Under the pieces are notes generated by a model, which saw only the letters and a program-made list of their open reading frames with translations, had not been told where the DNA came from and searched no databases. 64,000 nt of DNA from Candidatus Yanofskybacteria bacterium RIFCSPHIGHO2_01_FULL_41_26 (GTDB taxonomy: Bacteria; Patescibacteriota; Minisyncoccia; 2-02-FULL-40-12; GWA2-44-9), in assembly GCA_001794055.1 (NCBI GenBank), contig MGJB01000001.1:7457-71456 (forward strand), given 5' to 3'. Of this stretch, positions 4,642 to 63,276 are shown piece by piece. Each line of letters begins with the position of its first letter. The first letter of the stretch is position 1. The position numbers were made by a program, and so were the translations under genes.

Positions 4642-4875
4642 ATGCGTCTGGAGTTCTTTTTGGAGATGAACATGATTCTTCCCTCAACTGTTCAGTTGGC
4701 CGTTCTTAAGTTTAGCAAAAGCTCACAAGAAGACGATCCAAAAGATAAATGCGTGATGTGTGGAAAAGAAACGCCGTATCCTAAAAGTACCCACATTGAT
4801 TTTCGTGATTACTATGTTGAGGGATGTGGCCAGCTTTGCGGAGACTGCTGGAACAAGACTGATTCCCGAGCATAA
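4642..4875 (+). CDS. Small Cys-rich (CxxC...CxxC) zinc-ribbon-like protein
   Basis: GGAGG lies 11 nt upstream of the ATG. A rho-independent terminator (gtcgcccaagaggcggcTTTTGTTT) follows directly. CxxC ... CGDC pairs are present. Confidence 0.35.
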   Translation: MRLEFFLEMNMILPSTVQLAVLKFSKSSQEDDPKDKCVMCGKETPYPKSTHIDFRDYYVEGCGQLCGDCWNKTDSRA

Positions 4876-4924
4876 ATAACGTCGCCCAAGAGGCGGCTTT
4901 TGTTTACAAAAAATTAATAGCAAA

Positions 4925-5125
4925 ACCCTCACCCATTTCCGACCTATTGGATTGCGCCTCCGGTCTTCTTCGGACAAATGCTTAAGTTAATCTCAATTCA
5001 GTTAACAAATTTGGTTACCCCGTCGCAAGTTCCGACTCAAATTTGTTGAATGAACTGAATTATCAATCAATTTAAGCATTATGTTACCCTCGAAACCAAA
5101 CGGTCTGAAATGGGCTAGGTTTCGC
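4925..5125 (+). repeat. Repeat family D copy 1: ~200-nt structured element (long hairpin gcttaaNttaatctcaat...caaattt / aaatttgtt...attaatttaagc) closed by a copy-specific outer stem
   Basis: Aligns with copies at 29497-29770 and 42074-42280. The outer stem here is cccatttccgacc / ggtctgaaatggg. Confidence 0.7.
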
Positions 5126-5147
5126 TTAAATTATTTTAAGCAACCAG

Positions 5148-5312
5148 CCCGCATACCCTCAGGGAGAACTTGCGCAGGCATTTCGGCTTGCCCCCACACT
5201 CATGCATGAGTGTGGGGGCTTGGTTCTTTGAAATGCCGAGCATGGAGATGGCCGAGGCTCGCAGGAAGCCGAGGACTATCGGTCGAGTCGGGGGTATGTG
5301 GCTGGGAGGAGC
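5148..5312 (-). repeat. Repeat family B (MITE-like, 15-bp terminal inverted repeats cccagccacataccc / gggtatgtggctggg), minus orientation, with an internal 28-nt perfect palindrome insertion
   Basis: Reverse complement aligns with B copies at 15987-16123 and 62964-63099. The extra palindrome cccccacactcatgcatgagtgtggggg sits in the central loop. Confidence 0.7.
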
Positions 5313-5329: not shown

Positions 5330-5593
5330 TTAGGCGGTTTTCTGTAGGAGATGGGTCGTGTTGGATTTGAGACGGGAAGCTTTATTTTTCTTAATGACAC
5401 CGGTTTTGGCAGCTTTATCTAATGTCTGATAAACTCTGGAAAGCATTTTTTTGGCTTCATCTTTTTTACCTGCCGCAACTAGTTTTCGAAAATCTTTAAC
5501 AGACGCTTTGTAAGCGACGGTTTTTCTGGTATTTCGGATCTTCCTTGTTTTGTTTTGGCGCAAAGCTTTCTTTGCTGATTTAGTAATAGGCAT
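5330..5593 (-). CDS. rpsT: 30S ribosomal protein S20
   Basis: 87-aa basic protein starting MPITKSAKKALRQNKTRK, typical of S20. Flanked by repeat B upstream-side and repeat A downstream-side. Confidence 0.9.
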   Translation of the reverse strand: MPITKSAKKALRQNKTRKIRNTRKTVAYKASVKDFRKLVAAGKKDEAKKMLSRVYQTLDKAAKTGVIKKNKASRLKSNTTHLLQKTA

Positions 5594-5823: not shown

Positions 5824-5862
5824 GCGGGAAATAATCCCGTTTTTTTGTTGTACAAATATAAA

Positions 5863-5965
5863 GAAATAAGTTCCAGGCCAAAGAAGAACGTTCGCAGGCG
5901 GGTAGCCGAGAGAGAGCAAAAACCCAGCAGGGTTTTATGCGGTCTTCGTGGTCTGGGACTTATTT
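5863..5965 (+). repeat. Repeat family A copy 1 (~100 nt). Conserved core aagaagaacgttcg...ccgagatagagcaaaaa[ccc]agcag[ggg]ttttatgcggtct, closed by copy-specific outer stem gaaataagttccaggcca / tggtctgggacttatttc
   Basis: Six copies in the window (5863, 15263, 19397, 50200 rev, 51114, 57057). The inner stem covaries: ccc/ggg, ttc/gaa, ctc/gag. Confidence 0.75.
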
Positions 5966-5967
5966 CT

Positions 5968-7968
5968 TTAGATAACTTCACCCTTTAATTTTCTAATCTG
6001 TTCCTTTAGTCCCAACGCTGTTTCGTAATCCATTTTTCGGATGGCTTTATCCATCAGTTTCTGAAGCTGTTTCATGGCATTCTGTCTTGAGCCGTTGGTG
6101 AAGAAGATTATCTCATTGTTACCTTCACCGTATTTTTGAATTTCTTTCTGGCTGATCGGCAAGTCAAAATTGCCTATTTCTTTAATGATTGTTTGCGGTG
6201 TTATGCCGTTTTCTTTGTTATATTTTTCTTGTTTTTTTCGACGTCTCAGAGTTTCTTTGATCGCAAAATCAATAGACTTGGTTATTTTATCAGCGTACAT
6301 AATTACGTGGCCGTTCTCATTACGGGCTGCGCGGCCCATGGTTTGGATAAGTGTGGTTGTGTTTCTCAAAAAACCTTCTTTATCAGCATCCAATATTGCT
6401 ATTAAAGAAACTTCAGGCAAATCCAATCCTTCTCTCAAAAGGTTTACGCCAACCAGAACATCGTAATTGCCGAGACGGAGGTCTTTTATTATTTTTAATC
6501 TGTCCAATGTTTTTATTTCGGAGTGAAGATAATTGACTTTAATTTCCTGTTCGGCTAAATGTTCAGACAGGTCTTCGGCCATTCGTTTGGTAAGAGTTGT
6601 GACGATTACTCTTTCATGGTTTTTAATTCTTGCTTTGATGTTTTCTACTAAATGAGGAATTTGTCCTTCTGTTGGCCTTATTTCTATTGTCGGGTCCAAA
6701 AGGCCGGTTGGCCTGATGAGTTGTTCGGCTATTCCGTCTTTGCCAGCTTGTTCCATTTCGTATTTGGCCGGTGTGGCTGAAGTGTATATGGTTTTCTGAA
6801 TTCTTTTCTGGAATTCCGGAAATTTTAGCGGACGATTATCTATGGCTGAAGGCAATCTGAAACCGTATTCAACCAAAGTAGATTTTCGTGAATGATCGCC
6901 GGTGAACATTGAACGAAGCTGGGGAACTGTGACGTGCGACTCATCAATTATTGTCAGAAATTCTCCTTTGGAAGAAAAGAAATCCAGAAGTGAATAGGGC
7001 GGCTCGCCGGTTTTTCTGAAATCAAGATGGCGGGAGTAGTTTTCTATTCCGTGGCAGTATCCTGTTTGACGCATCATTTCAATATCTTGCCTGGTTTTTT
7101 CTTGAAGCCGGACAGCTTCCTCAAACTTTTTTTCTTTTTTCAAGTGTTTAACATGTTTCTGGAGTTCGCTTTTTATGTTTTCTATGGCTAATCCAATTTT
7201 ATCGCCTGAGGTTATCCAGTATTTGGCAGGAAAGATGGTAGTTTCAACTATTTTTTCATATTTTAAATCTTTCATTTCCAATTCTTCGGGATCAGAAATG
7301 GTGGCCTGCATAATTTTTTCAATTCGGTCGTTTTTAAACTTTATTTTAATAACTTCTTGGGCGCTTGGAGCGACTACCTCAATTTCGTTGGTTGTTTTTC
7401 TGAAACAGCCTCTTTTTAATTCTATATCCGGAACATACTGGAGCCGCAAAAGTCCCCGCACCAATTCAGACGAATTCATTTTTTTATTCTCAAATATCTG
7501 GAGACCCAAGTTTTTATAATCATCCGGTGAGCCGAGGTTGTAGATGCACGAAACGGAAGCAACAATTATTACATCATCTCGGCTGATGAGAGCTTGAGTG
7601 GCGGCATGGCGCAAGCGGTCTATCTCTTGATTTATTTTGGAATCCTTCTCTATGTAAGTATCGGTATGGGGAATATACGCTTCCGGTTGATAATAATCAT
7701 AATAGCTGACGAAATAATGAACGGCGTTTTTGGGAAAAAATTCTTTGAATTCTTTATACAACTGAGCGGCGAGAGTTTTGTTGTGAGAAATGATTAAGGT
7801 CGGTTTTTTATAATGCTCGATAATCTTGGCCATCGTAAACGTTTTACCCGAGCCGGTGACACCCAAAAGCACCTGATGCTTTTTGCCGGTTTTTAAACCC
7901 TTAGCTAATTTTTCTATTGCTTCGGGCTGATCCCCGGTGGGCTCGAATTTAGATGAAAGTTTGAACAT
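5968..7968 (-). CDS. uvrB: Excinuclease ABC subunit B
   Basis: 666-aa protein with Walker A GVTGSGKTFT, helicase motifs and a C-terminal UvrB/C interaction region. Confidence 0.95.
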   Translation of the reverse strand: MFKLSSKFEPTGDQPEAIEKLAKGLKTGKKHQVLLGVTGSGKTFTMAKIIEHYKKPTLIISHNKTLAAQLYKEFKEFFPKNAVHYFVSYYDYYQPEAYIPHTDTYIEKDSKINQEIDRLRHAATQALISRDDVIIVASVSCIYNLGSPDDYKNLGLQIFENKKMNSSELVRGLLRLQYVPDIELKRGCFRKTTNEIEVVAPSAQEVIKIKFKNDRIEKIMQATISDPEELEMKDLKYEKIVETTIFPAKYWITSGDKIGLAIENIKSELQKHVKHLKKEKKFEEAVRLQEKTRQDIEMMRQTGYCHGIENYSRHLDFRKTGEPPYSLLDFFSSKGEFLTIIDESHVTVPQLRSMFTGDHSRKSTLVEYGFRLPSAIDNRPLKFPEFQKRIQKTIYTSATPAKYEMEQAGKDGIAEQLIRPTGLLDPTIEIRPTEGQIPHLVENIKARIKNHERVIVTTLTKRMAEDLSEHLAEQEIKVNYLHSEIKTLDRLKIIKDLRLGNYDVLVGVNLLREGLDLPEVSLIAILDADKEGFLRNTTTLIQTMGRAARNENGHVIMYADKITKSIDFAIKETLRRRKKQEKYNKENGITPQTIIKEIGNFDLPISQKEIQKYGEGNNEIIFFTNGSRQNAMKQLQKLMDKAIRKMDYETALGLKEQIRKLKGEVI

Positions 7969-15064: not shown

Positions 15065-15247
15065 TCCCCAGCCACATACCCCCCGACTCGACCGATAGTC
15101 CTCAGTTTCAAAAGCTCAACCCTAACCCATTCTCGGGCACGGCATAAATTCTTGCTAGAATTTTGCCTCGTACTCGTTCCAGTCGAACTCCGTAAGTCCC
15201 TCTAATGGGTTAGGGTTTCGCTTTTTAGTTTTAAGTATGTGGCTGAG
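15065..15247 (+). repeat. Interrupted repeat B (5' end 15065-15102, 3' TIR remnant 15233-15247) with repeat C inserted between the halves
   Basis: ccccagccacataccccccgactcgaccgatagtcctc matches the B 5' end, and aagtatgtggctgag matches the B 3' TIR. The intervening 15110-15221 is the reverse complement of C (copy at 63121-63227). Confidence 0.6.
15110..15221 (-). repeat. Repeat family C (~110 nt, TIRs gaaaccctaacccatt / aatgggttagggtt), minus orientation, nested in a B copy
   Basis: Near-identical reverse complement of 63121-63227. Confidence 0.7.
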
Positions 15248-15262
15248 ACCTTAAATATCGTA

Positions 15263-15371
15263 AGCGAACGCCTTATTCCAAAGAAGAACGTTCGGAGGCT
15301 ACCCCGGGCCGAGATAGAGCAAAAACCCAGCAGGGTTTTATGCGGTCTGATTTGGGATGAGGCGTTCGCGA
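15263..15371 (+). repeat. Repeat family A copy 2, outer stem gcgaacgcc / ggcgttcgc
   Basis: Core identical to other A copies. Marks the left edge of the 15.05-19.5 kb island. Confidence 0.75.
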
Positions 15372-15986: not shown

Positions 15987-16123
15987 CCCCAGCCACATAC
16001 CCCCGACTCGACCGATAGTCCTCGGCTTCCTGCGAGCCTCGGCTGTCTTCATGCTCAGCCCCTCACCAAGCACCAAGCTTCGGGGCCTGCGCAAGTTCTC
16101 CCTGGGAGTATGTGGGCTTGGGA
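15987..16123 (+). repeat. Repeat family B, intact copy
   Basis: TIRs cccagccacataccc ... tatgtgggcttggg. Internal hairpin ggcctgcgcaag. Confidence 0.7.
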
Positions 16124-17699: not shown

Positions 17700-18650
17700 C
17701 ATGTCCCCCAAAGCCCTATTGGGCTTTTCTTTTTATCCCCAAAATCTCTGGAAACTCAACATCTTTTTTCAAGGCAACTTCTAATGGGCATTTCCCATTA
17801 AGATGTTTGAATGGCTCCTCACAATCAGTAAAAGATTTGGTTCTTCTCCTTATCATCCAAGCATTTAGCCATCTTTCAGCCGAGTGGAAACCCTGGAAGC
17901 CTTTAACGCTTTTTAATCTGGCTTGTAGGTGAGAATTGTAGCTCTCAATGATATTGGTCGTATTAGGGCATTGCTGTCTAAACTGAGCATTAAAAGCCCC
18001 CTTTAACTCGTAGAAGAAATCATGATATTTTTCCTCGGTTCTAATTCTGAGCATTTGTCTTAAAATCTCAAAGTAATGGTTATGGCATAATTGTATCGGA
18101 ACTGTCGGATAAATCTGTTTTAGAGCTGGTTTTAAAGCACCGGATGTCATCGGCTATCACAATCTGAAGAGGATAGCGGACAGTATGAAGCAAATTAAAG
18201 AATTTATTGAAAGCCCATTCATTTTCACTGGGAGCTAAAACACCGACTGGTATATCGTGGCTTAGATAATCAATGCCGTAGATAAAAGGTATTTTCTTAT
18301 CATAGCCCTTAACTTTTACATATTTCCCATCAACAACTAATCTACCTGACCACCGATTACAGTATTCTCTTGATAGCCAAGTATTTTCTGGCAACTTATT
18401 CATTTCGTCTTCTACTTGTCTAAAAACTCTGGCTGGAGATGTGCTATACTGGTCAGCCAGTTTTCTGAATGGAACTCCGTCAATATGCGGTATCCAAAAG
18501 ATTGGTTTTACTCTGTGGTCTATTGAAAAAGAATGCTTTTGTTTCTTACAGAAAAATCTTTTTAATCCTTTTCTACTTCCTTTCTTAATTGTTTTATTAC
18601 TGCCGCAGACTGGGCATTTTGGGTTCTTTTTTTAGTCATAATACCCAATT
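17700..18650 (-). mobile_element. IS6 (IS26)-family insertion sequence, approximate ends not defined
   Basis: Transposase with VDGKYVKVKG...YGIDYLS and NIIESYNSHL...GFQGFHSAERWL motifs (IS6-family DDE signatures) plus an N-terminal CPVCG...C zinc ribbon. Clear TIRs could not be identified by eye. Confidence 0.6.
17716..18640 (-). pseudogene. IS6-family transposase split over three frames: leader MTKK at an A7 run, zinc-ribbon+DDE N-part, DDE C-part
   Basis: First shift at atgactAAAAAAAg (a -1 slip gives KNPKCPVCG...). Second shift at ttAAAAcc, where one fewer A restores ...CFKPALKQIYP. Either programmed slippage or homopolymer indels. Confidence 0.55.
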
Positions 18651-19396: not shown

Positions 19397-19492
19397 GAGG
19401 CCTTGTCTCAAAGAAGAACGTTCGGAGGCCGACGGGCCGAGATAGAACAAAAACTCAGCAGAGTTTTATGTGGTCTGATTTGGGATAAGGCC
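19397..19492 (+). repeat. Repeat family A copy 3 (variant core aaaactcagcagagtttt), outer stem ggccttgtctca / tgggataaggcc
   Basis: Same orientation as the copy at 15263. Together they bracket the 15.3-19.5 kb island. Confidence 0.7.
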
Positions 19493-20259: not shown

Positions 20260-20365
20260 TTTTGGATAAGTTTATGTTATAATTGAGAGCGAGGAGTAAA
20301 GCGTAAGCTTGCTTATGCTTTATCCGAGTGAACAAATTATACAAAGTATAATCTCTTAAACTAAA

Positions 20366-24842: not shown

Positions 24843-25112
24843 TCACTCGGCCTTATTGCATTTTTCAGCCCGTTACGATTGCTCCAGCGGCAATCTCCAC
24901 TTGTCCTCACGACGGCGGGTTCTTTAGTCGTCTTATGCTTTGTGTATAATGGTAAATTGCTACGACGGAAAGCCTGAACCTTGAATGACTTATCTTTACC
25001 TACTCCCTCAGAACACCAAGCCCGCCTGTTGCGGGTCTGAAAAATACAACAAGGCCTTGCTCTTTTTTAATCTTGTAGGTTTCCTTGTTCGTCATAAGTG
25101 AGAAAATTAGGC

Positions 25113-26094: not shown

Positions 26095-26207
26095 TTGACG
26101 AATCGAGGAGGGAGCTGGGGTTGATTGAATATGTATTCCAAAATAATAGGTCGAGCGCCGAGCATCTCGCGAGGAGGCAAGCGTGGGTTACCTGTTATTT
26201 TGGTAAA
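26095..26207 (+). repeat. Repeat family E copy 1 (ttgacgaRtcgagg..ttccaaaataataggtcgagcgccgagc..gcgaggaggcaagYgWgggttaYcTgttat)
   Basis: Copy 2 at 30012-30177 carries two extra hairpin insertions. Both copies lie upstream of + strand envelope/secreted protein genes. Confidence 0.55.
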
Positions 26208-26293
26208 TACATACCAATCATACTGAAGCGTATGACGAAATGAGGAACCGTGACCAAATTTGGCATGGGGTGAGCTAATGATATAATCATCTC

Positions 26294-27646
26294 ATGGTGT
26301 TTGTGAGAAAATTCGAACAATTTTTATTTTATTTTCTGCTTTTTGCAATTCCGTTTCAGACGCGGAAGATTTTGTGGCATCAAAATTGGAATTTTAATGA
26401 GTGGCAGTCGATATCTATCTACGGTACGGATATTTTATTACTCATTCTTTTCGGATTCTGGATTTTTGACTTAATTAATCCGAAGATAGAGCCACCTGTG
26501 GATAACCGACTTCGCAAGTCGGTTATCCACAGGTTTGTTAAGAGACATGATTACTTTTTGTTTGTCTTGATTGTCGTCTCAGCTATTTCGATTAAAAACT
26601 CTTCCAGCTATATTCTAAGCACCTATAGTGTTTTGAAACTCGTAGAATTTGTTGTCTTTTATTTCTATATCAAAAGTTATGCGGTTTATAAGTTCGGCTT
26701 GATAAGGTCAATGATTGTTTTGATTTACGGAGGATTATTTCAGGCGATAATTGCTATTCTGCAGTTTTTTAAACAATCAAGTTTAGGTTTAGGATTGTTG
26801 GGGGAAAGTGTTATTAGTCCCAATCTGACCGGCATTGCTTCTTTTTATAATATGGCGGGAGAAAAGATAATCCGCACCTATGGAACGACGCCCCACCCTA
26901 ATGTTTTGGCCGGATATTTATTTTTGGCAATTTTTGCTTTTTATTATCTCTGGATTTATAAAAACATAAGCAAGTTTTTCTTGCTTATGTATGGATTAAT
27001 TATTTTGGCTTTCTTTTTTACTTTTGCCCGGGTAGCAGTATTTCTTTTGTTTATAAATTTTCTAGTTAGAATCATTTTAGTGCATTTAAAATTTAAGAAA
27101 GAATACTGGAATAAGAAGTTAGCTTTACTGTCCGTAGTAACGGTTGTTGTTGCTACATCTCTCTTTTTGATTTATTGGTCCGAGACGGTCAGTCGGGTTA
27201 TGATTTCTTCCAAAGAAGAGGCGGTTCAAATGAGGATTTTTTACAATAAGGAATCTTTGAGTTCCTTGAACTGGTTTGGTGTCGGTTCGGGTAACTTTGT
27301 CAATTGGCTTATGGTCAAAGATCCCAATTTACCGCGTAATCTTTATCAACCGGTGCACAATATCTACCTCTTGGTTTATTCGGAAACGGGAATTTTGGGC
27401 ATCTCTGCTTTCCTCATGTTTCTGTTGTTTTTGATCAAAGATTTTGTATTGCGGACACGCATGAAAAATCTTTATAACTATTCGTTTCTTCTTATCTTTC
27501 TCTCGGTTTTATTTATGGGACTTTTTGACCATTTTTTGTTGACGCTTCAGCAGGGGAGGTTTATTTTTTGGTTAACAGTTATGCTCTTGACTATTAATCG
27601 CAAAGATGATATAATGATTAAACAACAGTCAGAACCGACCGCATAG
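26294..27646 (+). CDS. O-antigen ligase / Wzy-like polymerase family membrane protein
   Basis: ~12 TM helices with the HNIYLLVYSETGILG motif of the O-antigen ligase family. Carries the in-frame palindromic insert at 26499-26537. Confidence 0.65.
   Translation: MVFVRKFEQFLFYFLLFAIPFQTRKILWHQNWNFNEWQSISIYGTDILLLILFGFWIFDLINPKIEPPVDNRLRKSVIHRFVKRHDYFLFVLIVVSAISIKNSSSYILSTYSVLKLVEFVVFYFYIKSYAVYKFGLIRSMIVLIYGGLFQAIIAILQFFKQSSLGLGLLGESVISPNLTGIASFYNMAGEKIIRTYGTTPHPNVLAGYLFLAIFAFYYLWIYKNISKFFLLMYGLIILAFFFTFARVAVFLLFINFLVRIILVHLKFKKEYWNKKLALLSVVTVVVATSLFLIYWSETVSRVMISSKEEAVQMRIFYNKESLSSLNWFGVGSGNFVNWLMVKDPNLPRNLYQPVHNIYLLVYSETGILGISAFLMFLLFLIKDFVLRTRMKNLYNYSFLLIFLSVLFMGLFDHFLLTLQQGRFIFWLTVMLLTINRKDDIMIKQQSEPTA
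26499..26537. repeat. 39-nt perfect hairpin made of two inverted DnaA-box-like 9-mers (cTGTGGATAAccgacttcgcaagtcggTTATCCACAg), in frame inside a CDS
   Basis: Identical stem at 50374-50412 with the loop inverted. Encodes PVDNRLRKSVIHR in the host ORF. Confidence 0.65.
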
Positions 27647-28810: not shown

Positions 28811-29488
28811 ATGGAAAATGTAATTCATTTATTTGAATCAAGTTTCCCAACCATTGTTGAGTATAAATACCTGCTTCTGTTTTTGGGTTCTATCTTTGAA
28901 GGTCTAAACAGCATGGTTCTTGGCGGTTTCTTAGTTTCGACTGGAACGATCAAGCTTATTCCAATTTTCCTGATATTTACTGTCGGTTATGTTCTTAACG
29001 GGTATCTGTGGTATTTTATCGGTTATTTTGCCGGAGCAAAGCCGATTGATAAATGGGGAAGAGGGAAGCCCAAGAGTCGAAAAATAGTAGAGAAAGTAGA
29101 AGAATATTTTGGAAAATATAGCGGTCGGGCAATTATTTTTACAAAATTTACTTTCTCTCTCACGATTGCCACGCTTATAATGGCCGGATCTCTGAAGTAC
29201 GACCTTAAGAAATTTTCTCTGTATAATTTTATCGGTTCAATTGGCTGGGTTTTGGCAACTTTATTTATTGGCTATTTCTTTGGCCAAAGCTACAAATTTT
29301 TCATTGACTCCCTTGTGAACATTACTTATTTGATACTTTTCTTGGGCGGTGCCGTGGCCTTGGTTTACATTTTAAAACTCATGTTTGGCAGTGCTTTTAC
29401 AAAATCCCTTCTTTTGAAAGATAAACTCAAGGAATTCAGCGACAAACTCAAAGATGGGATTGATAAGTTCTTGTCAGACAAGGAATAG
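28811..29488 (+). CDS. DedA/SNARE-associated (VTT domain) membrane protein
   Basis: Conserved FLGSIFEG...GGFL DedA motif and 4-5 TM helices. Confidence 0.7.
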   Translation: MENVIHLFESSFPTIVEYKYLLLFLGSIFEGLNSMVLGGFLVSTGTIKLIPIFLIFTVGYVLNGYLWYFIGYFAGAKPIDKWGRGKPKSRKIVEKVEEYFGKYSGRAIIFTKFTFSLTIATLIMAGSLKYDLKKFSLYNFIGSIGWVLATLFIGYFFGQSYKFFIDSLVNITYLILFLGGAVALVYILKLMFGSAFTKSLLLKDKLKEFSDKLKDGIDKFLSDKE

Positions 29489-29496
29489 TCGCTCAA

Positions 29497-29770
29497 CCCG
29501 CCCCCATTCTCGGCCTGTTGGATTACGGCCTCCGGATCTCCTGGAGGCGATTCCAGGGCTGGCTAAAGCACAGCCCTAAAACCTTCTCCTTGACGGACAA
29601 ATGCTTAAACTAACCTTCAATTTGCTTAACAAATTTAAGCATCCGTTCCTCCCCGCCAGCTGGCGGGGATTTTCCGGCTAAGATTTATTGAATAAGCAGA
29701 TTATCAATTAATTTGAGTATTATGTTACCCTCGAAACCAAAAGGTCTTAAATAAGCGGGCTTTGCTTGTT
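29497..29770 (+). repeat. Repeat family D copy 2 (central loop replaced by hairpin cctccccgccagctggcggggatt)
   Basis: Aligns with 4925-5125 and 42074-42280. Located directly after the DedA stop codon. Confidence 0.7.
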
Positions 29771-30011: not shown

Positions 30012-30177
30012 TTGACGAGGTGAGGAAACAGGTTAGGTTGATTGATCCGCCATCCGCCAACTGGCGGAGGCGGATTGATTTCCAAAATAATAGGTCGAGC
30101 GCCGAGCCGCCAGCCTGTCTGCGATAGTCAAGCAATAGGCTGGCGTAGCGAGGAGGCAAGTGAGGGTTATCTTGTTA
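30012..30177 (+). repeat. Repeat family E copy 2 with two hairpin insertions
   Basis: Shares ttccaaaataataggtcgagcgccgagc and agcgaggaggcaagtgagggttatcttgttat with copy 1. Confidence 0.55.
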
Positions 30178-30211
30178 TAGCTGCAAACGAAGACAAATGT
30201 AAGCTTTACTT

Positions 30212-30251
30212 AAATTTTGTCCGAGTGGGGCAGATATACAACGTATTTTGG
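30212..30251 (+). repeat. Repeat family F copy 1 (ttttgtccgagYg..atatacaacgtattt)
   Basis: Second copy at 42911-42949. Confidence 0.45.
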
Positions 30252-30378
30252 CTTTAAATCAATTTAATTATACCGAATCTGTTCCCCGGAGACGAGGAAC
30301 CGTGGCAGAAAAGTGATGGGGCGGAGCTCTGGCCTGTGGATTGCCATGTTGAGGTGGATTTGGTACAATTAATCCTAC

Positions 30379-31602: not shown

Positions 31603-31872
31603 GTCAGATAATTAATCCATTTTATCAGTTTAGCGGAGCGGATTTTAGCCAAATCCGAGACGCGAGGATGAAGCTGTAGATTATTCTACTGCGAGTCCGA
31701 GTAACGAAGGATTTGGTCTAAAATCAGCCCGCCCTAAGAGGGAAGCTAAATAACAAGACCGATTCTTTCGTCTCTCCTCCTCAATATAGAACAATCTATA
31801 TCTTCGTCGTTCCTCGGACTCGGTCTATTCTTTAGCTTCTAAAATGATAAAATGGATTAATTATCTGACCCA
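31603..31872. repeat. 270-bp intergenic element bounded by 24-bp perfect inverted repeats (tcagataattaatccattttatca / tgataaaatggattaattatctga) with nested internal hairpins
   Basis: IRs abut the protease stop and the start of the next gene. The interior has no ORF and at least 5 nested stem pairs. Confidence 0.6.
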
Positions 31873-40771: not shown

Positions 40772-40878
40772 CCGCGATACGACAAAAGAGCTGACGGATG
40801 TACGGAAATTACCATGAGCGCTTCGCTATAATGGTAATTTCCTATCCGTCAGCTTCTTTATGTTACCGTATCGCTGCG
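40772..40878. repeat. Hairpin-closed element: ~25-bp stem-loop (agctgacggatgtacggaaattaccat / atggtaatttcctatccgtcagct) inside outer stem gcgatacg / cgtatcgc. D-like 3' motif tatgttacc
   Basis: Architecture parallels family D (outer stem, long hairpin, tatgttacc). Confidence 0.45.
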
Positions 40879-41194: not shown

Positions 41195-41308
41195 ATAAGG
41201 GGTTTTTATTTATCGCGAACACCCCACCCCACCTTCTCATCTTTTAAGCAAACTTATCCAGGACGATGAATCAGGTGGGATGGGGTATTCGCTCGACATA
41301 AAGCAATC

Positions 41309-41466
41309 ATCGCCAATCTCTCTGATATCACTCCACGTAGCAATGGGCTAAACAAAACAGGGGTCGAATGAGTAAATATGCGAAATAGCGAAGCGCTCTC
41401 GCATATTTATGAAATGAGACCCCATTTTGTTCGCATTGCGGAGTTGTGATAGAAGAGAGGTTGGCG
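41309..41466. repeat. ~155-nt long imperfect palindrome (rod-like element of 4 nested helices) immediately upstream of frr, preceded by a 20-bp-stem hairpin at 41213-41295
   Basis: Left arm catcgccaatctctc-tgatatcac-...-aaatatgcga mirrors the right arm tcgcatattt-...-gtgataga-gagaggttggcgatg. Confidence 0.55.
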
Positions 41467-41516
41467 ATGGATGCGGAGACGTTGTTTAGAGAAAAATTAT
41501 ATGCTAATATTTTTTT

Positions 41517-42071
41517 ATGTATAAAGACCACATAAGCCAGAAAAAAAAGGAGTTTGATGTCGCTGTTGAGCATGTCAAAAATGAGATAGCTGGAATAAGA
41601 ACCGGCCGGGCCCATGTTTCCATGGTTGAAGATATTGTCGTGGATTATATGGACTCCAAGTTCAGGATTAGAGAATTAGCAACTATTAATATTCCTGAAC
41701 CGCGGACACTTCTCATCCAACCGTGGGACAAACAGGCTATTCCTAATATTGTAAAAAGCATTAAAGAAAGTTCCTTGGGTTTAAACCCTATTGATGACGC
41801 CACCGGCATTAGGTTGAATATTCCGCCATTAACGGAAGAACGCCGGCTGGAATTTATCAAATTACTTCATCAGAAAATTGAATGGGGGAAGGTAAGAGTC
41901 AGACAAATTCGGGAAGATGTATTAAAGAAAGTCCAGGCTGAAGTCAAAGAAAAGAAGGCCCGGGAAGATGATTTGTTTAAAGCCAAAGAAGAACTTCAAA
42001 AAATCATAAACGACCTCAATCGTATCTTTGACAATATGACCAAGAAAAAAGAACAGGAATTGATGTCGTAA
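41517..42071 (+). CDS. frr: Ribosome recycling factor
   Basis: 184 aa. The MYKDHISQKKKEFDVAVEHVKNEIAGIRTGRA start is typical of RRF. Confidence 0.9.
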   Translation: MYKDHISQKKKEFDVAVEHVKNEIAGIRTGRAHVSMVEDIVVDYMDSKFRIRELATINIPEPRTLLIQPWDKQAIPNIVKSIKESSLGLNPIDDATGIRLNIPPLTEERRLEFIKLLHQKIEWGKVRVRQIREDVLKKVQAEVKEKKAREDDLFKAKEELQKIINDLNRIFDNMTKKKEQELMS

Positions 42072-42073
42072 AA

Positions 42074-42280
42074 AGCGAAGGCCTGAATCATTTTCTCACC
42101 GTTGACTTTCTTCGGACAAATGCTTAAATTAATCTCAATTTGCTTAACAAATTTTAGCATCCGTTCCTCCCTAAGGGGATTTTCCGGCTAAAATTTGTTG
42201 ATTAAGCAAATTATCAATTAATTTAAGCATTGTGTTACCCTCGAAACCAATAGGTTCTAAAATGACTAAGGCCTTCGCTT
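42074..42280 (+). repeat. Repeat family D copy 3, outer stem aagcgaaggcct / aggccttcgctt
   Basis: Aligns with D1 and D2. The central loop hairpin is cctccctaaggggatt. Confidence 0.7.
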
Positions 42281-42301
42281 TAAAATCATTAAATCATATT
42301 A

Positions 42302-42811
42302 ATGAGTATTGAAAGTCTAAGTAAAATAGAACGAGGCAAGGAAACTTTAATGAATCTTGAGAAAGAAGGGCTTTATGTTTTTCACGGTTCAACGGAGTTG
42401 ATACAAGAATTAGAACCACGCCAGGCAAAGGTTTGGAATAAAGACAAAAAAGAAATGGTTGCACACGGAGAGCCGTCAGTAGTTGCAACACCATTTGCAG
42501 AAATTGCAATATTCAGGGCTATTATAAGTAACAAGATAAAATCCAATGACGGAAAGCATTACAGTTCTTTTGGCTCTGATGGACATAAACCATTTTTTGA
42601 AACCACTCTCAAGATATTGGAACAGGCCAAAGATGTTGTGGGCTATGTTTATGTTTTTAAAAAAGAAGATTTTACTAAACTTAGTCCGATGGAGTGGAGA
42701 TCAAACAAGAAGCTCAAACCCGTTCGGACTTTTGAAGTGCATTTTCAAGATTTGCCAGAAAATATCAAACTTGAGCCAAGAAACAGTGAAGATGTCTCTT
42801 TAAAATTGTAA
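42302..42811 (+). CDS. Hypothetical protein
   Basis: 169-aa ORF bracketed by two hairpin-closed repeat elements that share the aagcgaaggcc outer stem. Confidence 0.45.
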   Translation: MSIESLSKIERGKETLMNLEKEGLYVFHGSTELIQELEPRQAKVWNKDKKEMVAHGEPSVVATPFAEIAIFRAIISNKIKSNDGKHYSSFGSDGHKPFFETTLKILEQAKDVVGYVYVFKKEDFTKLSPMEWRSNKKLKPVRTFEVHFQDLPENIKLEPRNSEDVSLKL

Positions 42812-42821
42812 GCGAAGGCCA

Positions 42822-43097
42822 CTGTTATTTTCTCGCAAACTGCACGTTTGGCAACTATTTCAGGAGCTCTGACGCTATAATTATGAGTGAGGAGCAAAAT
42901 GATTGAAAATCATTTTGTCCGAGCGAGTTAAATATACAACGTATTTCTCTGGGTACCGACCCGAGGATGTCGAAAACGGCCCAAAGGGCCGCATGGTTCG
43001 ACAGGAGTTGCTTCGGGCGGTCAGATAAATTAGGAAGAATTTCTAGAAATAGTCCAAGAGGAAGCCGTGAGAAAATGGCAGCGGCTTCGCTTTTAAC
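42822..43097. repeat. Hairpin-closed element (outer stem aagcgaaggcca / gcggcttcgctt) containing repeat F copy 2 (42911-42949)
   Basis: Same outer-stem sequence as D copy 3 on the other side of the ORF. Confidence 0.5.
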
Positions 43098-43134
43098 TTT
43101 GAATTTTCAGATTTTAGTTATAATATAGAGACAC

Positions 43135-50303: not shown

Positions 50304-50373
50304 TATGATATAAATTAATAAGCATGAAAAATAGGCCCCGTTGCGGGGCCTTTTGGCGTCTCTTTTCGTTTGC

Positions 50374-50412
50374 CTGTGGATAACCGACTTGCGAAGTCGG
50401 TTATCCACAGCT
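50374..50412. repeat. Second copy of the DnaA-box-like hairpin (cTGTGGATAAccgacttgcgaagtcggTTATCCACAg)
   Basis: Same stems as 26499-26537 with the 7-nt loop inverted, implying insertion in the opposite orientation. Confidence 0.65.
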
Positions 50413-51113: not shown

Positions 51114-51236
51114 GCGGAGGGAGACACCTTTATCCCAAAGAAGAACGTTCGGAGGCTACCCCGGGCCGAGATAGAGCAAAAATTCAGTAGAATTTTATGC
51201 GGTCTTCGTGGGATGAAGGCGTCTCCCTCCGTATGC
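51114..51236 (+). repeat. Repeat family A copy 5 with 22-bp outer stem ggagggagacacctttatccca / tgggatgaaggcgtctccctcc
   Basis: Core variant aaaattcagtagaatttt. Precedes lysS. Confidence 0.75.
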
Positions 51237-56958: not shown

Positions 56959-57056
56959 AAAATTATGCTCAACCCTCCCCATTTTTGAGCATCGTGTTAT
57001 CTTCGGAGGTAAACGGTCTGCAAATGGAGAGGGGTTTCTCTGGCCTTTTTGTTGAA

Positions 57057-57160
57057 GCGACACCTTCATCCCAAAGAAGAACGTTCGGAGGCTACCCTGG
57101 GCCGAGATAGAGCAAAAATTCAGTAGAATTTTATGCGGTCTTCGTGGGATGAGGTGGCGC
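57057..57160 (+). repeat. Repeat family A copy 6, outer stem gcgacaccttcatccca / tgggatgaggtggcgc
   Basis: Core as in copy 5. Confidence 0.75.
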
Positions 57161-62963: not shown

Positions 62964-63099
62964 CCCCCAGCCACATACCCCCGACTCGACCGATAGTTGA
63001 TTTGTTCCAGCGACAAATCACTATCTACATGCTCGGCATTTCGAAGAACCAAGCCGAAATGCCTGCGCAAGTTCTCCCTGTGGGTATGTGGACTGGGGG
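62964..63099 (+). repeat. Repeat family B copy
   Basis: TIRs cccagccacataccc / gggtatgtggactggg. Internal hairpin ggcatttcgaagaaccaagccgaaatgcc. Confidence 0.7.
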
Positions 63100-63120
63100 C
63101 TCTTAATTAATTAAGCCAAA

Positions 63121-63227
63121 GCGAAACCCTAATCCGTTAGAGGGACTTACGGAGTTCGGCGGAACGAGTACGAGGCAAAATTCCAGTCAGGAATTTATGC
63201 CGTGCCCGAGAATGGGTTAGGGTTGAG
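63121..63227 (+). repeat. Repeat family C copy (plus orientation)
   Basis: TIRs gaaaccctaatccgtt / aatgggttagggttgag. Reverse complement of 15110-15221. Confidence 0.7.
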
Positions 63228-63276
63228 CGCAACTTGTGGAATATTAGTTTTTGTTTTTATGTTACAATAAATACAT

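Follow-up and report, generated by a model that had tools for sequence, protein, structure and literature searches.

Family D, a candidate REP/ERIC/MITE-like palindromic element at gene ends in Yanofskybacteria and close Patescibacteria relatives

Copies of family D in the window and in related genomes

The window, that is, the whole 64-kb stretch of DNA analysed here, carries three full copies of a repeat that we call family D, which lie downstream of ORF 4642-4875, of a DedA/VTT gene and of frr, respectively. All three are on the + strand and match a 29-copy profile of the family with E = 2e-55 to 4e-59, at essentially the coordinates given in a preliminary description of this DNA. The inverted-repeat pair, the variable apical hairpin and the tail TRTGTTACCCTCGAAACCAA that had been reported there are present in every one of them. 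The invariant 17-mer GTTACCCTCGAAACCAA has 3 exact occurrences in the window, compared to a chance expectation of 0.18 (at up to 3 mismatches). The copies, and the parts of copy 1, are as follows; z compares the fold with that of shuffled sequence.

4920-5125, + strand: family D copy 1 (fold -62.7 kcal/mol, z = -6.0; profile E = 2.3e-55)
4920-4950 and 5096-5125, + strand: 5' and 3' arms of the outer stem (P1) of copy 1
about 4954-4966, + strand: small hairpin of copy 1
4965-4981, + strand: 5' strand of the junction of copy 1
4980-5012 and 5039-5077, + strand: 5' and 3' arms of the long hairpin of copy 1
5013-5038, + strand: apical variable hairpin of copy 1
5078-5099, + strand: conserved tail of copy 1
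29490-29765, + strand: family D copy 2, 2 nt past the TAG stop (29486-29488) of the DedA/VTT gene (z = -4.0)
42072-42281, + strand: family D copy 3, 1 nt past the frr TAA stop (42069-42071) (z = -11.5)
56967-57041, + strand: miniature family D copy of 75 nt with an internal deletion (profile match to model positions 166-218)

The miniature is a fourth copy in the window and had been overlooked. It keeps the outer stem and the tail, has lost the long hairpin, matches the 3' parts of other D copies by blastn, and lies immediately past an intrinsic terminator. The three full copies had been said to start within a few nucleotides of stop codons; this is the case for copies 2 and 3, but copy 1 is placed 45 nt past the stop of ORF 4642-4875, just beyond the terminator hairpin of that ORF (4881-4897). 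Copy 1 has this terminator on one side and the convergent rpsT gene (5330-5593) on the other. The sequence at 40772-40878, which had been taken for a degenerate relative, does not match the family profile at E <= 0.01 and resembles family D in no more than the 9-mer TATGTTACC and the broad layout of its hairpin; it is a member of another repeat family, with a partial relative in L031 (loci from outside the window are given L numbers). At 40775-40868, after holB, there is a hairpin with 25-bp arms in which TATGTTACC is unpaired. The holB-frr gap is 818 nt in the window versus 21 nt in L071.

The Frr protein of the window is identical to database entries from Candidatus Yanofskybacteria MAGs of the Rifle aquifer. 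Beyond the window, we scanned one genome per species for exact matches to TGTTACCCTCGAAACCAA; true copies occurred in just five Patescibacteria MAGs, the remaining matches being due to chance. A metagenome scan yielded 40 loci, nearly all of them from groundwater. After de-duplication there were 32 distinct full-length copies from related groundwater Patescibacteria outside the window, which range from 167 to 284 nt and are typically ~210 nt long. Many of the matches sit at contig ends, as expected, because repeats break assemblies.

We found no description of family D in the papers searched, and a search of Rfam at gathering thresholds gave 0 matches over the whole window; at E <= 10, copy 3 drew only chance miRNA or snoRNA hairpins, with 13-21 bits compared to thresholds of 37-230. 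Several candidate identities were set aside. A self-cleaving ribozyme (hammerhead, hairpin, twister and others) found no Rfam match at E <= 10, and the CUGANGA box is absent from the sequence. There was likewise no match for a tRNA-like or tmRNA-like origin, and none in phage or plasmid collections. A small peptide was rejected because the sole internal ORF (23-26 codons, from the ATG of GGACAAATG) is not conserved: in the alignment its frame is shifted in copy 2, and its ATG is missing in L007, L018, L040, L055 and L056. Family D is non-coding, short and multi-copy.

Structure, conservation and strand of the hairpin

Family D is a single long imperfect hairpin with branches, an architecture common to the 32 distinct copies. 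Its outermost part is the stem P1, of about 25 bp, inside which there is an optional small hairpin; in copy 2 an extra branch of ~60 nt replaces the small hairpin, and L042 has the same branch insertion. A conserved asymmetric junction follows, in which CTTCTTCGGACAAATGC faces GCATTGTGTTACCCTCGAAACC, and then an AT-rich stem of about 45 bp, which is broken by a conserved internal loop and ends in a variable tip. The apical modules are of three unrelated types, and in some copies small hairpins have been added at set positions inside the element. Conservation is highest in the interior and lowest in the outer arms, and the terminal nucleotides vary most; being complementary, the outer arms form terminal inverted repeats.

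The alignment of more copies confirmed that the secondary structure is conserved, as the preliminary description had proposed. In an alignment of 29 sequences, 97.6% of the cells of the long hairpin pair, and 12 of its 37 pairs have changed on both sides. These values were not reached in any of 500 shuffles, and sliding the partners by 1-3 columns left at most 3 such pairs. The consensus fold of 16 type-A copies also recovers P1, with compensatory changes in 19 of 53 pairs, P1 included.

The outer stems had been described as copy-specific, which is not fully so. P1 falls into a few classes, and GCTCAACCCCNCCC...GGGNGGGGTTTCGC and AAGCGAAGGCC...GGCCTTCGCTT (the class of copy 3) recur across loci and genomes; GCTCAACCCCNCCCATTTCCGACC...GGTCTGAAATGGGNGGGGTTTCGC and AAGCGAAGGCCTNAATCATTTT...AAAATGACTAAGGCCTTCGCTT are likewise examples of recurring classes. 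Cognate P1 arms pair at -29.7 kcal/mol, compared to -20.3 kcal/mol for non-cognate arms. Since the classes recur and cognate arms pair best, the outer stems cannot be called arbitrary hairpins of the host, and they are not wholly specific to each copy; they are a covarying part of family D. Moreover, their recurrence between loci indicates that they move with the element and are not hairpins of the host, and the idea that the elements target hairpins is thus not borne out for family D, although small palindromes nested inside these elements are directly observed.

The core is highly conserved. Copy 3 and its ortholog in L034 are 96% identical (about 8 of 208 positions differ), while the adjacent frr genes of the window and L034 have an identity of 82% overall, which drops to 60% at third codon positions. 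Near-identical cores are also found within different outer stems and in different genomes. A core that is conserved beyond frr and is shared across stems and genomes points to either strong selection or recent horizontal spread of the core. Because the core is more conserved than the adjoining protein gene, yet does not appear in RNA catalogues, it is a good candidate for a terminator, a stabiliser or a recombination site that is functional, in bacteria with transcription signals that have hardly been studied.

The pattern of substitutions does not single out either strand as the functional one. Within the long hairpin, one-sided G.U intermediates account for 7 cells and double changes for 40, and on the sense strand G.U (about 7 cells) does not exceed A.C (about 9 cells). 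When folded as RNA, 28 of the 29 copies are more stable, by 13 kcal/mol, on the strand antisense to the upstream gene; two conserved C.A positions of the internal loop, which are G.U on the other strand, account for most of this excess. The mRNA-sense strand is therefore not favoured.

The - strand also has a promoter-like site (GTAACA, 17 nt, GATAAT; 9 of 12) in all three full copies of the window, made from the conserved tail and the ATTATC internal loop. If this site were active, family D might drive an antisense transcript that crosses the hairpin and enters the upstream gene from its 3' end. The identical site in the three copies, the place of both hexamers among the most conserved positions of the family and the better folding of the - strand RNA would all fit. 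However, a 9-of-12 site is weak, shuffled sequence yields about one per region, and the junction structure accounts equally for the conservation of the hexamers; we consider an antisense promoter very unlikely.

Position at gene ends and turnover at orthologous sites

Family D is found predominantly at gene ends, which extends to other loci the gene-terminal position first reported for the window. Based on simple ORF calls, which gave 27 distinct copies with a callable upstream ORF, about 21 of the 27 are co-oriented with the upstream gene and 14 begin 0-8 nt past its stop codon; about 6 copies are antisense to the neighbouring gene. The distance to the downstream gene is usually much larger, and the tight spacing to the stop is therefore not a mere product of short intergenic regions. 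In one set of orthologous type-B copies, it is the 3' side that abuts a stop codon, that of a convergent gene. In L036, two inverted D copies, at 6028-6231 (-) and 7441-7650 (+), flank one amino-acid permease gene in a layout like that of a composite transposon.

The ORFs downstream of family D are mutually unrelated, with small accessory functions (GIY-YIG, GrpB, GNAT, NUDIX, uridine kinase family, DUF5680) and unknowns. We rejected a leader or riboswitch of a downstream gene family, since 19 downstream ORFs had no mutual similarity at E < 1e-5 and unrelated Pfam domains.

The flanks of the element resemble those of terminators. The base of P1 is G+C-rich, its 5' flank is A-rich, and its 3' flank almost always opens with TT and is T-rich (about 5 of 8 positions are T on average). 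A canonical terminator directly precedes copy 1, the miniature copy and a short D-like element at 41213-41296, and a consensus terminator scan (loop at most 8 nt) did not call the family D copies in the window. A role as terminator or 3'UTR stabiliser that forms or protects mRNA 3' ends is plausible.

We examined orthologous sites in relatives and, in agreement with the proposed mobility, found the same junctions empty or holding other elements in close relatives (L064/L071, L072-L075), and one junction that is filled in L056 and empty in the window. In L056 a D copy separates two genes whose window counterparts overlap by ATGA, and both sides show clear homology; the insert begins with TAATTCGCTC and ends with GAAGTTA, and no duplication is seen. 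Conversely, in L064/L071, in which frr belongs to the same 90%-identity cluster as the window frr, frr and rseP overlap by TAATG, while the window has 1063 bases there (42072-43134). This insert comprises copy 3, a 169-codon ORF (42302-42811) with no Pfam match, and a further element, Y. The insert ends in a promoter-like stretch (TTGAAT...TATAAT) before rseP. Family D is absent over 20.5 kb of L071, which also has no gene between frr and rseP; the window and L034 have different genes there.

Other junctions differ in a similar manner. At the junction of copy 1, L072-L075, which are in the same 90%-identity ftsW cluster, hold other elements; on the 3' side of DedA, four related genomes have four different elements; and on the 3' side of the permease gene, the window has an element that we call D', while L030, L036 and L013 have canonical D. 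Neither filled/empty pair (L056 versus the window; the window versus L064/L071) has a target-site duplication of more than 1 nt, and manual reading of junctions found no consistent one. The TA...TA flanks of some type-B copies arise because the palindrome extends into them (GAAATAAGC...GCTTATTTC).

The window contains five further elements with stems like those of family D but with other interiors or a shorter form.

24843-25066, + strand: element D', with the outer and inner stem style of D (CTCGGCCTTATTGCATTTTTCAGCCC...GGGTCTGAAAAATACAACAAGGCCTTG) and a different interior (z = -4.1)
15110-15225, + strand: element with the type-A outer stem of family D (AAAAGCTCAACCCTAACCCATT...AATGGGTTAGGGTTTCGCTTTT) and an unrelated 72-nt interior
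63118-63228, - strand: second copy of the 15110-15225 element
41213-41296, + strand: short element with a D-like outer stem (CGCGAACACCCCACCCC...GGGATGGGGTATTCGCTCG)
42812-43095, + strand: element Y, with outer arms nearly those of copy 3 (AAGCGAAGGCC...GGCTTCGCTTTT) and a different interior

D' begins directly past the stop of the amino-acid permease gene, and a relative of the 41213 element in L075 has a 93-nt palindrome nested in its loop. Copy 3 and Y bracket ORF 42302-42811, and Y lies within about 1 kb of D in L010, L011, L013, L028/L033 and L044; in the loci where it was extracted, the ORF between D and Y is a different gene each time. Pieces related to Y are found at 20289-20351, 26129-26212 and 30080-30260, and Y and these fragments lie just upstream of genes (rseP, Lon, Wzy_C and Peptidase_S8). 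A search for hairpins with the strict type-A stem pattern but no interior found none.

These results bear on the possibility that family D works as a structured RNA whose role depends on its sequence, for instance as a 3'UTR element bound by a protein, as a switch beside the stop codon that is coupled to translation, or as a small RNA present in many copies, and that it was duplicated to many genes because they need it. Such a role would agree with a core that stays 96% conserved where neighbouring synonymous sites are saturated, with its near-identity in different outer stems and genomes, with covariation in every helix, and with an asymmetric junction and tail that are retained even by the miniature copy; a start 0-8 nt past the stop would also put the 5' arm of P1 in the footprint of the terminating ribosome. 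It is difficult to reconcile, however, with the gain and loss of copies among close relatives, at sites that other families use as well, with three unrelated apical types and extra hairpins that are inserted freely, or with the copies that are antisense to the neighbouring gene. The rarity of one-sided G.U, which on the sense strand is not above A.C, and the lack of a relative in Rfam also argue against it, and we regard a functional RNA of this kind as unlikely.

Possible modes of spread and comparison with known systems

The explanation that we favour, which we hold to be about evenly balanced between right and wrong, is that family D is a new REP/ERIC/MITE-like element, non-coding, non-autonomous and palindromic, in the terminator slot of Yanofskybacteria and close Patescibacteria relatives. 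Under this explanation, family D would be copied into, or exchanged at, a narrow neutral slot past stop codons or existing terminators. Transcription from the upstream gene would then produce a rod-like 3' structure with a G+C-rich base followed by a T-rich run, and the rod could act as a terminator or as a block to 3' exonucleases, insulating neighbouring genes. The core would be conserved because of this function rather than through pure selfishness. Spread might be due to an enzyme acting in trans, or to homologous exchange of whole intergenic modules after DNA uptake.

Searches for a mobilising enzyme or a parent element were negative. No transposase or integrase was seen, and no match to Y1_Tnp (RAYT), among the 10 window ORFs scanned and the Pfam hits listed for genes of neighbouring loci, and neither the window nor the ~0.5 Mb of other loci examined contained an insertion sequence whose ends match those of family D and that could be its parent. 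As autonomous parents, L015, L029, L046 and L061 were rejected: they keep the tail but have other interiors, and are truncations or mosaics without an ORF. On the - strand, a 144-codon ORF at 17716-18150 has a sub-threshold match to Transposase_mut (17.6 bits versus a cut-off of 21), which covers the C-terminal part of Mutator/IS256-family transposases; from its sequence, this ORF may be a transposase remnant.

Several observations count against the favoured explanation. Conserved interiors with variable termini are the reverse of a classical transposon, and a few to a few tens of copies per genome is low for REP-like families. In addition, target-site duplication, a parent insertion sequence and a transposase were not found at the sites and in the loci searched, the terminator scan of the window was negative, and the sense strand is not favoured.

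When family D is compared with Rfam families, REP/REPIN, classical MITEs and attC sites, each of these fails at least one defining feature. The ERIC (IRU) sequences of Enterobacteria are 127-bp imperfect palindromes, non-coding intergenic hairpins that have insertion variants at fixed internal sites, vary in presence among related genomes, show compensatory changes and have no known transposase. Family D is likewise an intergenic, full-length imperfect hairpin with insertion variants, polymorphism and compensatory changes, but it has no sequence or Rfam similarity to ERIC, is about 210-280 nt long, occurs in a different phylum, and has a branched junction, covarying outer-stem classes and a tight abutment to stop codons.

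REP units are 20-40 nt and REPINs about 100 nt long, with a conserved GTAG or CGTC head (PMC3733652). Family D resembles REP/BIME and REPIN sequences as extragenic palindromes at gene 3' ends that are often mosaic or nested, and for which roles as terminators, as mRNA stabilisers and in translation coupling near stop codons have been proposed; it differs in being far longer (about 210 nt) and in having a conserved GTAG or CGTC at neither end. Bacterial MITEs, including Correia/NEMIS, RUP and bcr1, have been reviewed (PMC2229807). Family D is, like these, small, non-autonomous and multi-copy, with inverted ends and insertion polymorphism, and both can bear terminator-like or promoter-like signals. 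In contrast to MITEs, family D is palindromic over its whole length and not at the ends alone, its tips are the least conserved part, and neither a TA or other target duplication nor a matching parent insertion sequence was found in the loci searched.

A different possibility is that family D is a recombination site that acts as a single-stranded DNA hairpin (like attC, REP/RAYT or IS200/IS605-like sites) for a hairpin-specific recombinase, with D and Y marking slots for accessory genes. It resembles attC in that both are imperfect palindromes that start at or next to a stop codon, co-oriented with the gene, with a middle that keeps structure over sequence and unrelated small accessory ORFs that follow, and the type-A 5' end GCTCAAC fits the attC R'' consensus RYYYAAC. 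The pairing of D with Y within about 1 kb in five sets of loci and around one ORF in the window, the differing gene content at frr-rseP (window versus L034, with none in L071) and the absence of target duplication would also fit such a site. So would the excess of two-sided changes over one-sided G.U (40 versus 7 cells), the greater G.T/G.U pairing on the strand opposite to the gene sense and the loops with nested small palindromes. Nevertheless, family D, at 200-280 nt, is outside the 57-141 nt range of attC, its 3' end GTTTCGC does not fit GTTRRRY, and the GTAG/CGTC head of REPs is absent. Its copies lie 12-25 kb apart among housekeeping genes, scattered over 64 kb with no array, most D copies have no Y partner, and neither the window ORFs tested nor the Pfam hits of neighbouring loci included an integrase, a Y1/HUH enzyme or another recombinase. 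A recombination site of this type therefore seems improbable to us.

A broader and rather doubtful version is that D, D', X, Y, E (described below) and the 41213 type are all substrates of one previously undescribed, hairpin-specific DNA recombination system in Patescibacteria, paired as attC-like slots for gene exchange. If so, these elements would insert beside stop codons and into each other's loops, and single accessory genes would be captured and swapped between housekeeping genes, an integron-like exchange dispersed around a streamlined genome. The frr-rseP site also resembles the minimal mobile elements of Neisseria (with Correia/dRS3 repeats) in that it holds different small genes in relatives and is flanked by repeats, but this likeness concerns the locus and not the repeat. 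By this analogy, exchange at frr-rseP by transformation and homologous recombination is plausible.

Family D and similar elements matter for how these genomes are viewed. The genomes of the Candidate Phyla Radiation are considered streamlined, with little mobile DNA. The non-coding share of the 64-kb stretch is about 14% (by a simple greedy ORF map), and much of this non-coding DNA is made up of nested palindromic elements, which belong to several families and vary among close relatives. Being both abundant and different between relatives, the palindromic elements are thus a main source of genome plasticity in the lineage, and they also explain contig breaks in its metagenome assemblies. The association of family D with variable small accessory genes offers a testable route to gene exchange in these bacteria.

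Several other repeats were noted. A second family of about 105 nt has five copies in the window (5856-5973, 15264-15369, 19400-19491, 51115-51231 and 57059-57156), each a hairpin with ends such as GCGAAC...GTTCGC and the conserved interior AAAGAAGAACGTTCGGAGGCTACCCCGGGCCGAGATAGAGCAAAAAYYCAGYAGRRTTTTATGCGGTCT; a further copy is found in L034, in the interval from a NUDIX ORF to rseP. The family CCCCAGCCACATACCCCCGACTCGACCGATAGT ... GCCTGCGCAAGTTCTCCCTG occurs at 15067-15099, 15987-16122, 62965-63098 and, on the opposite strand, about 5140-5290, this last copy being directly 3' of family D copy 1. A structured repeat that begins with GAATGAGTAAATAYGCGAAWTAGCGAAGCGCTCTCGCATATTTA lies within its own long outer stem at 41303-41474 of the window and at about 4180-4340 of L030, where a larger hairpin encloses both it and an adjacent family D variant. 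Family 'E' (GCTCGGCTARYYGGCTT...AAGCCRRTTAGCCGAGC) is present in L013 (4168-4292) and L015 (about 990-1135), where it starts directly past the stops of DedA and rodA/ftsW, respectively; the L015 copy is joined to a 3' piece of family D. In the Peptidase_S8-MFS interval, 31-nt inverted repeats that are 97% complementary surround 205 nt (31603-31869), forming a stem-enclosed intergenic element. Finally, two near-identical perfect palindromes, at 26494-26534 and 50373-50410 (CTGTGGATAACCGACTT...AAGTCGGTTATCCACAG), have the DnaA-box consensus TTATCCACA in each arm.
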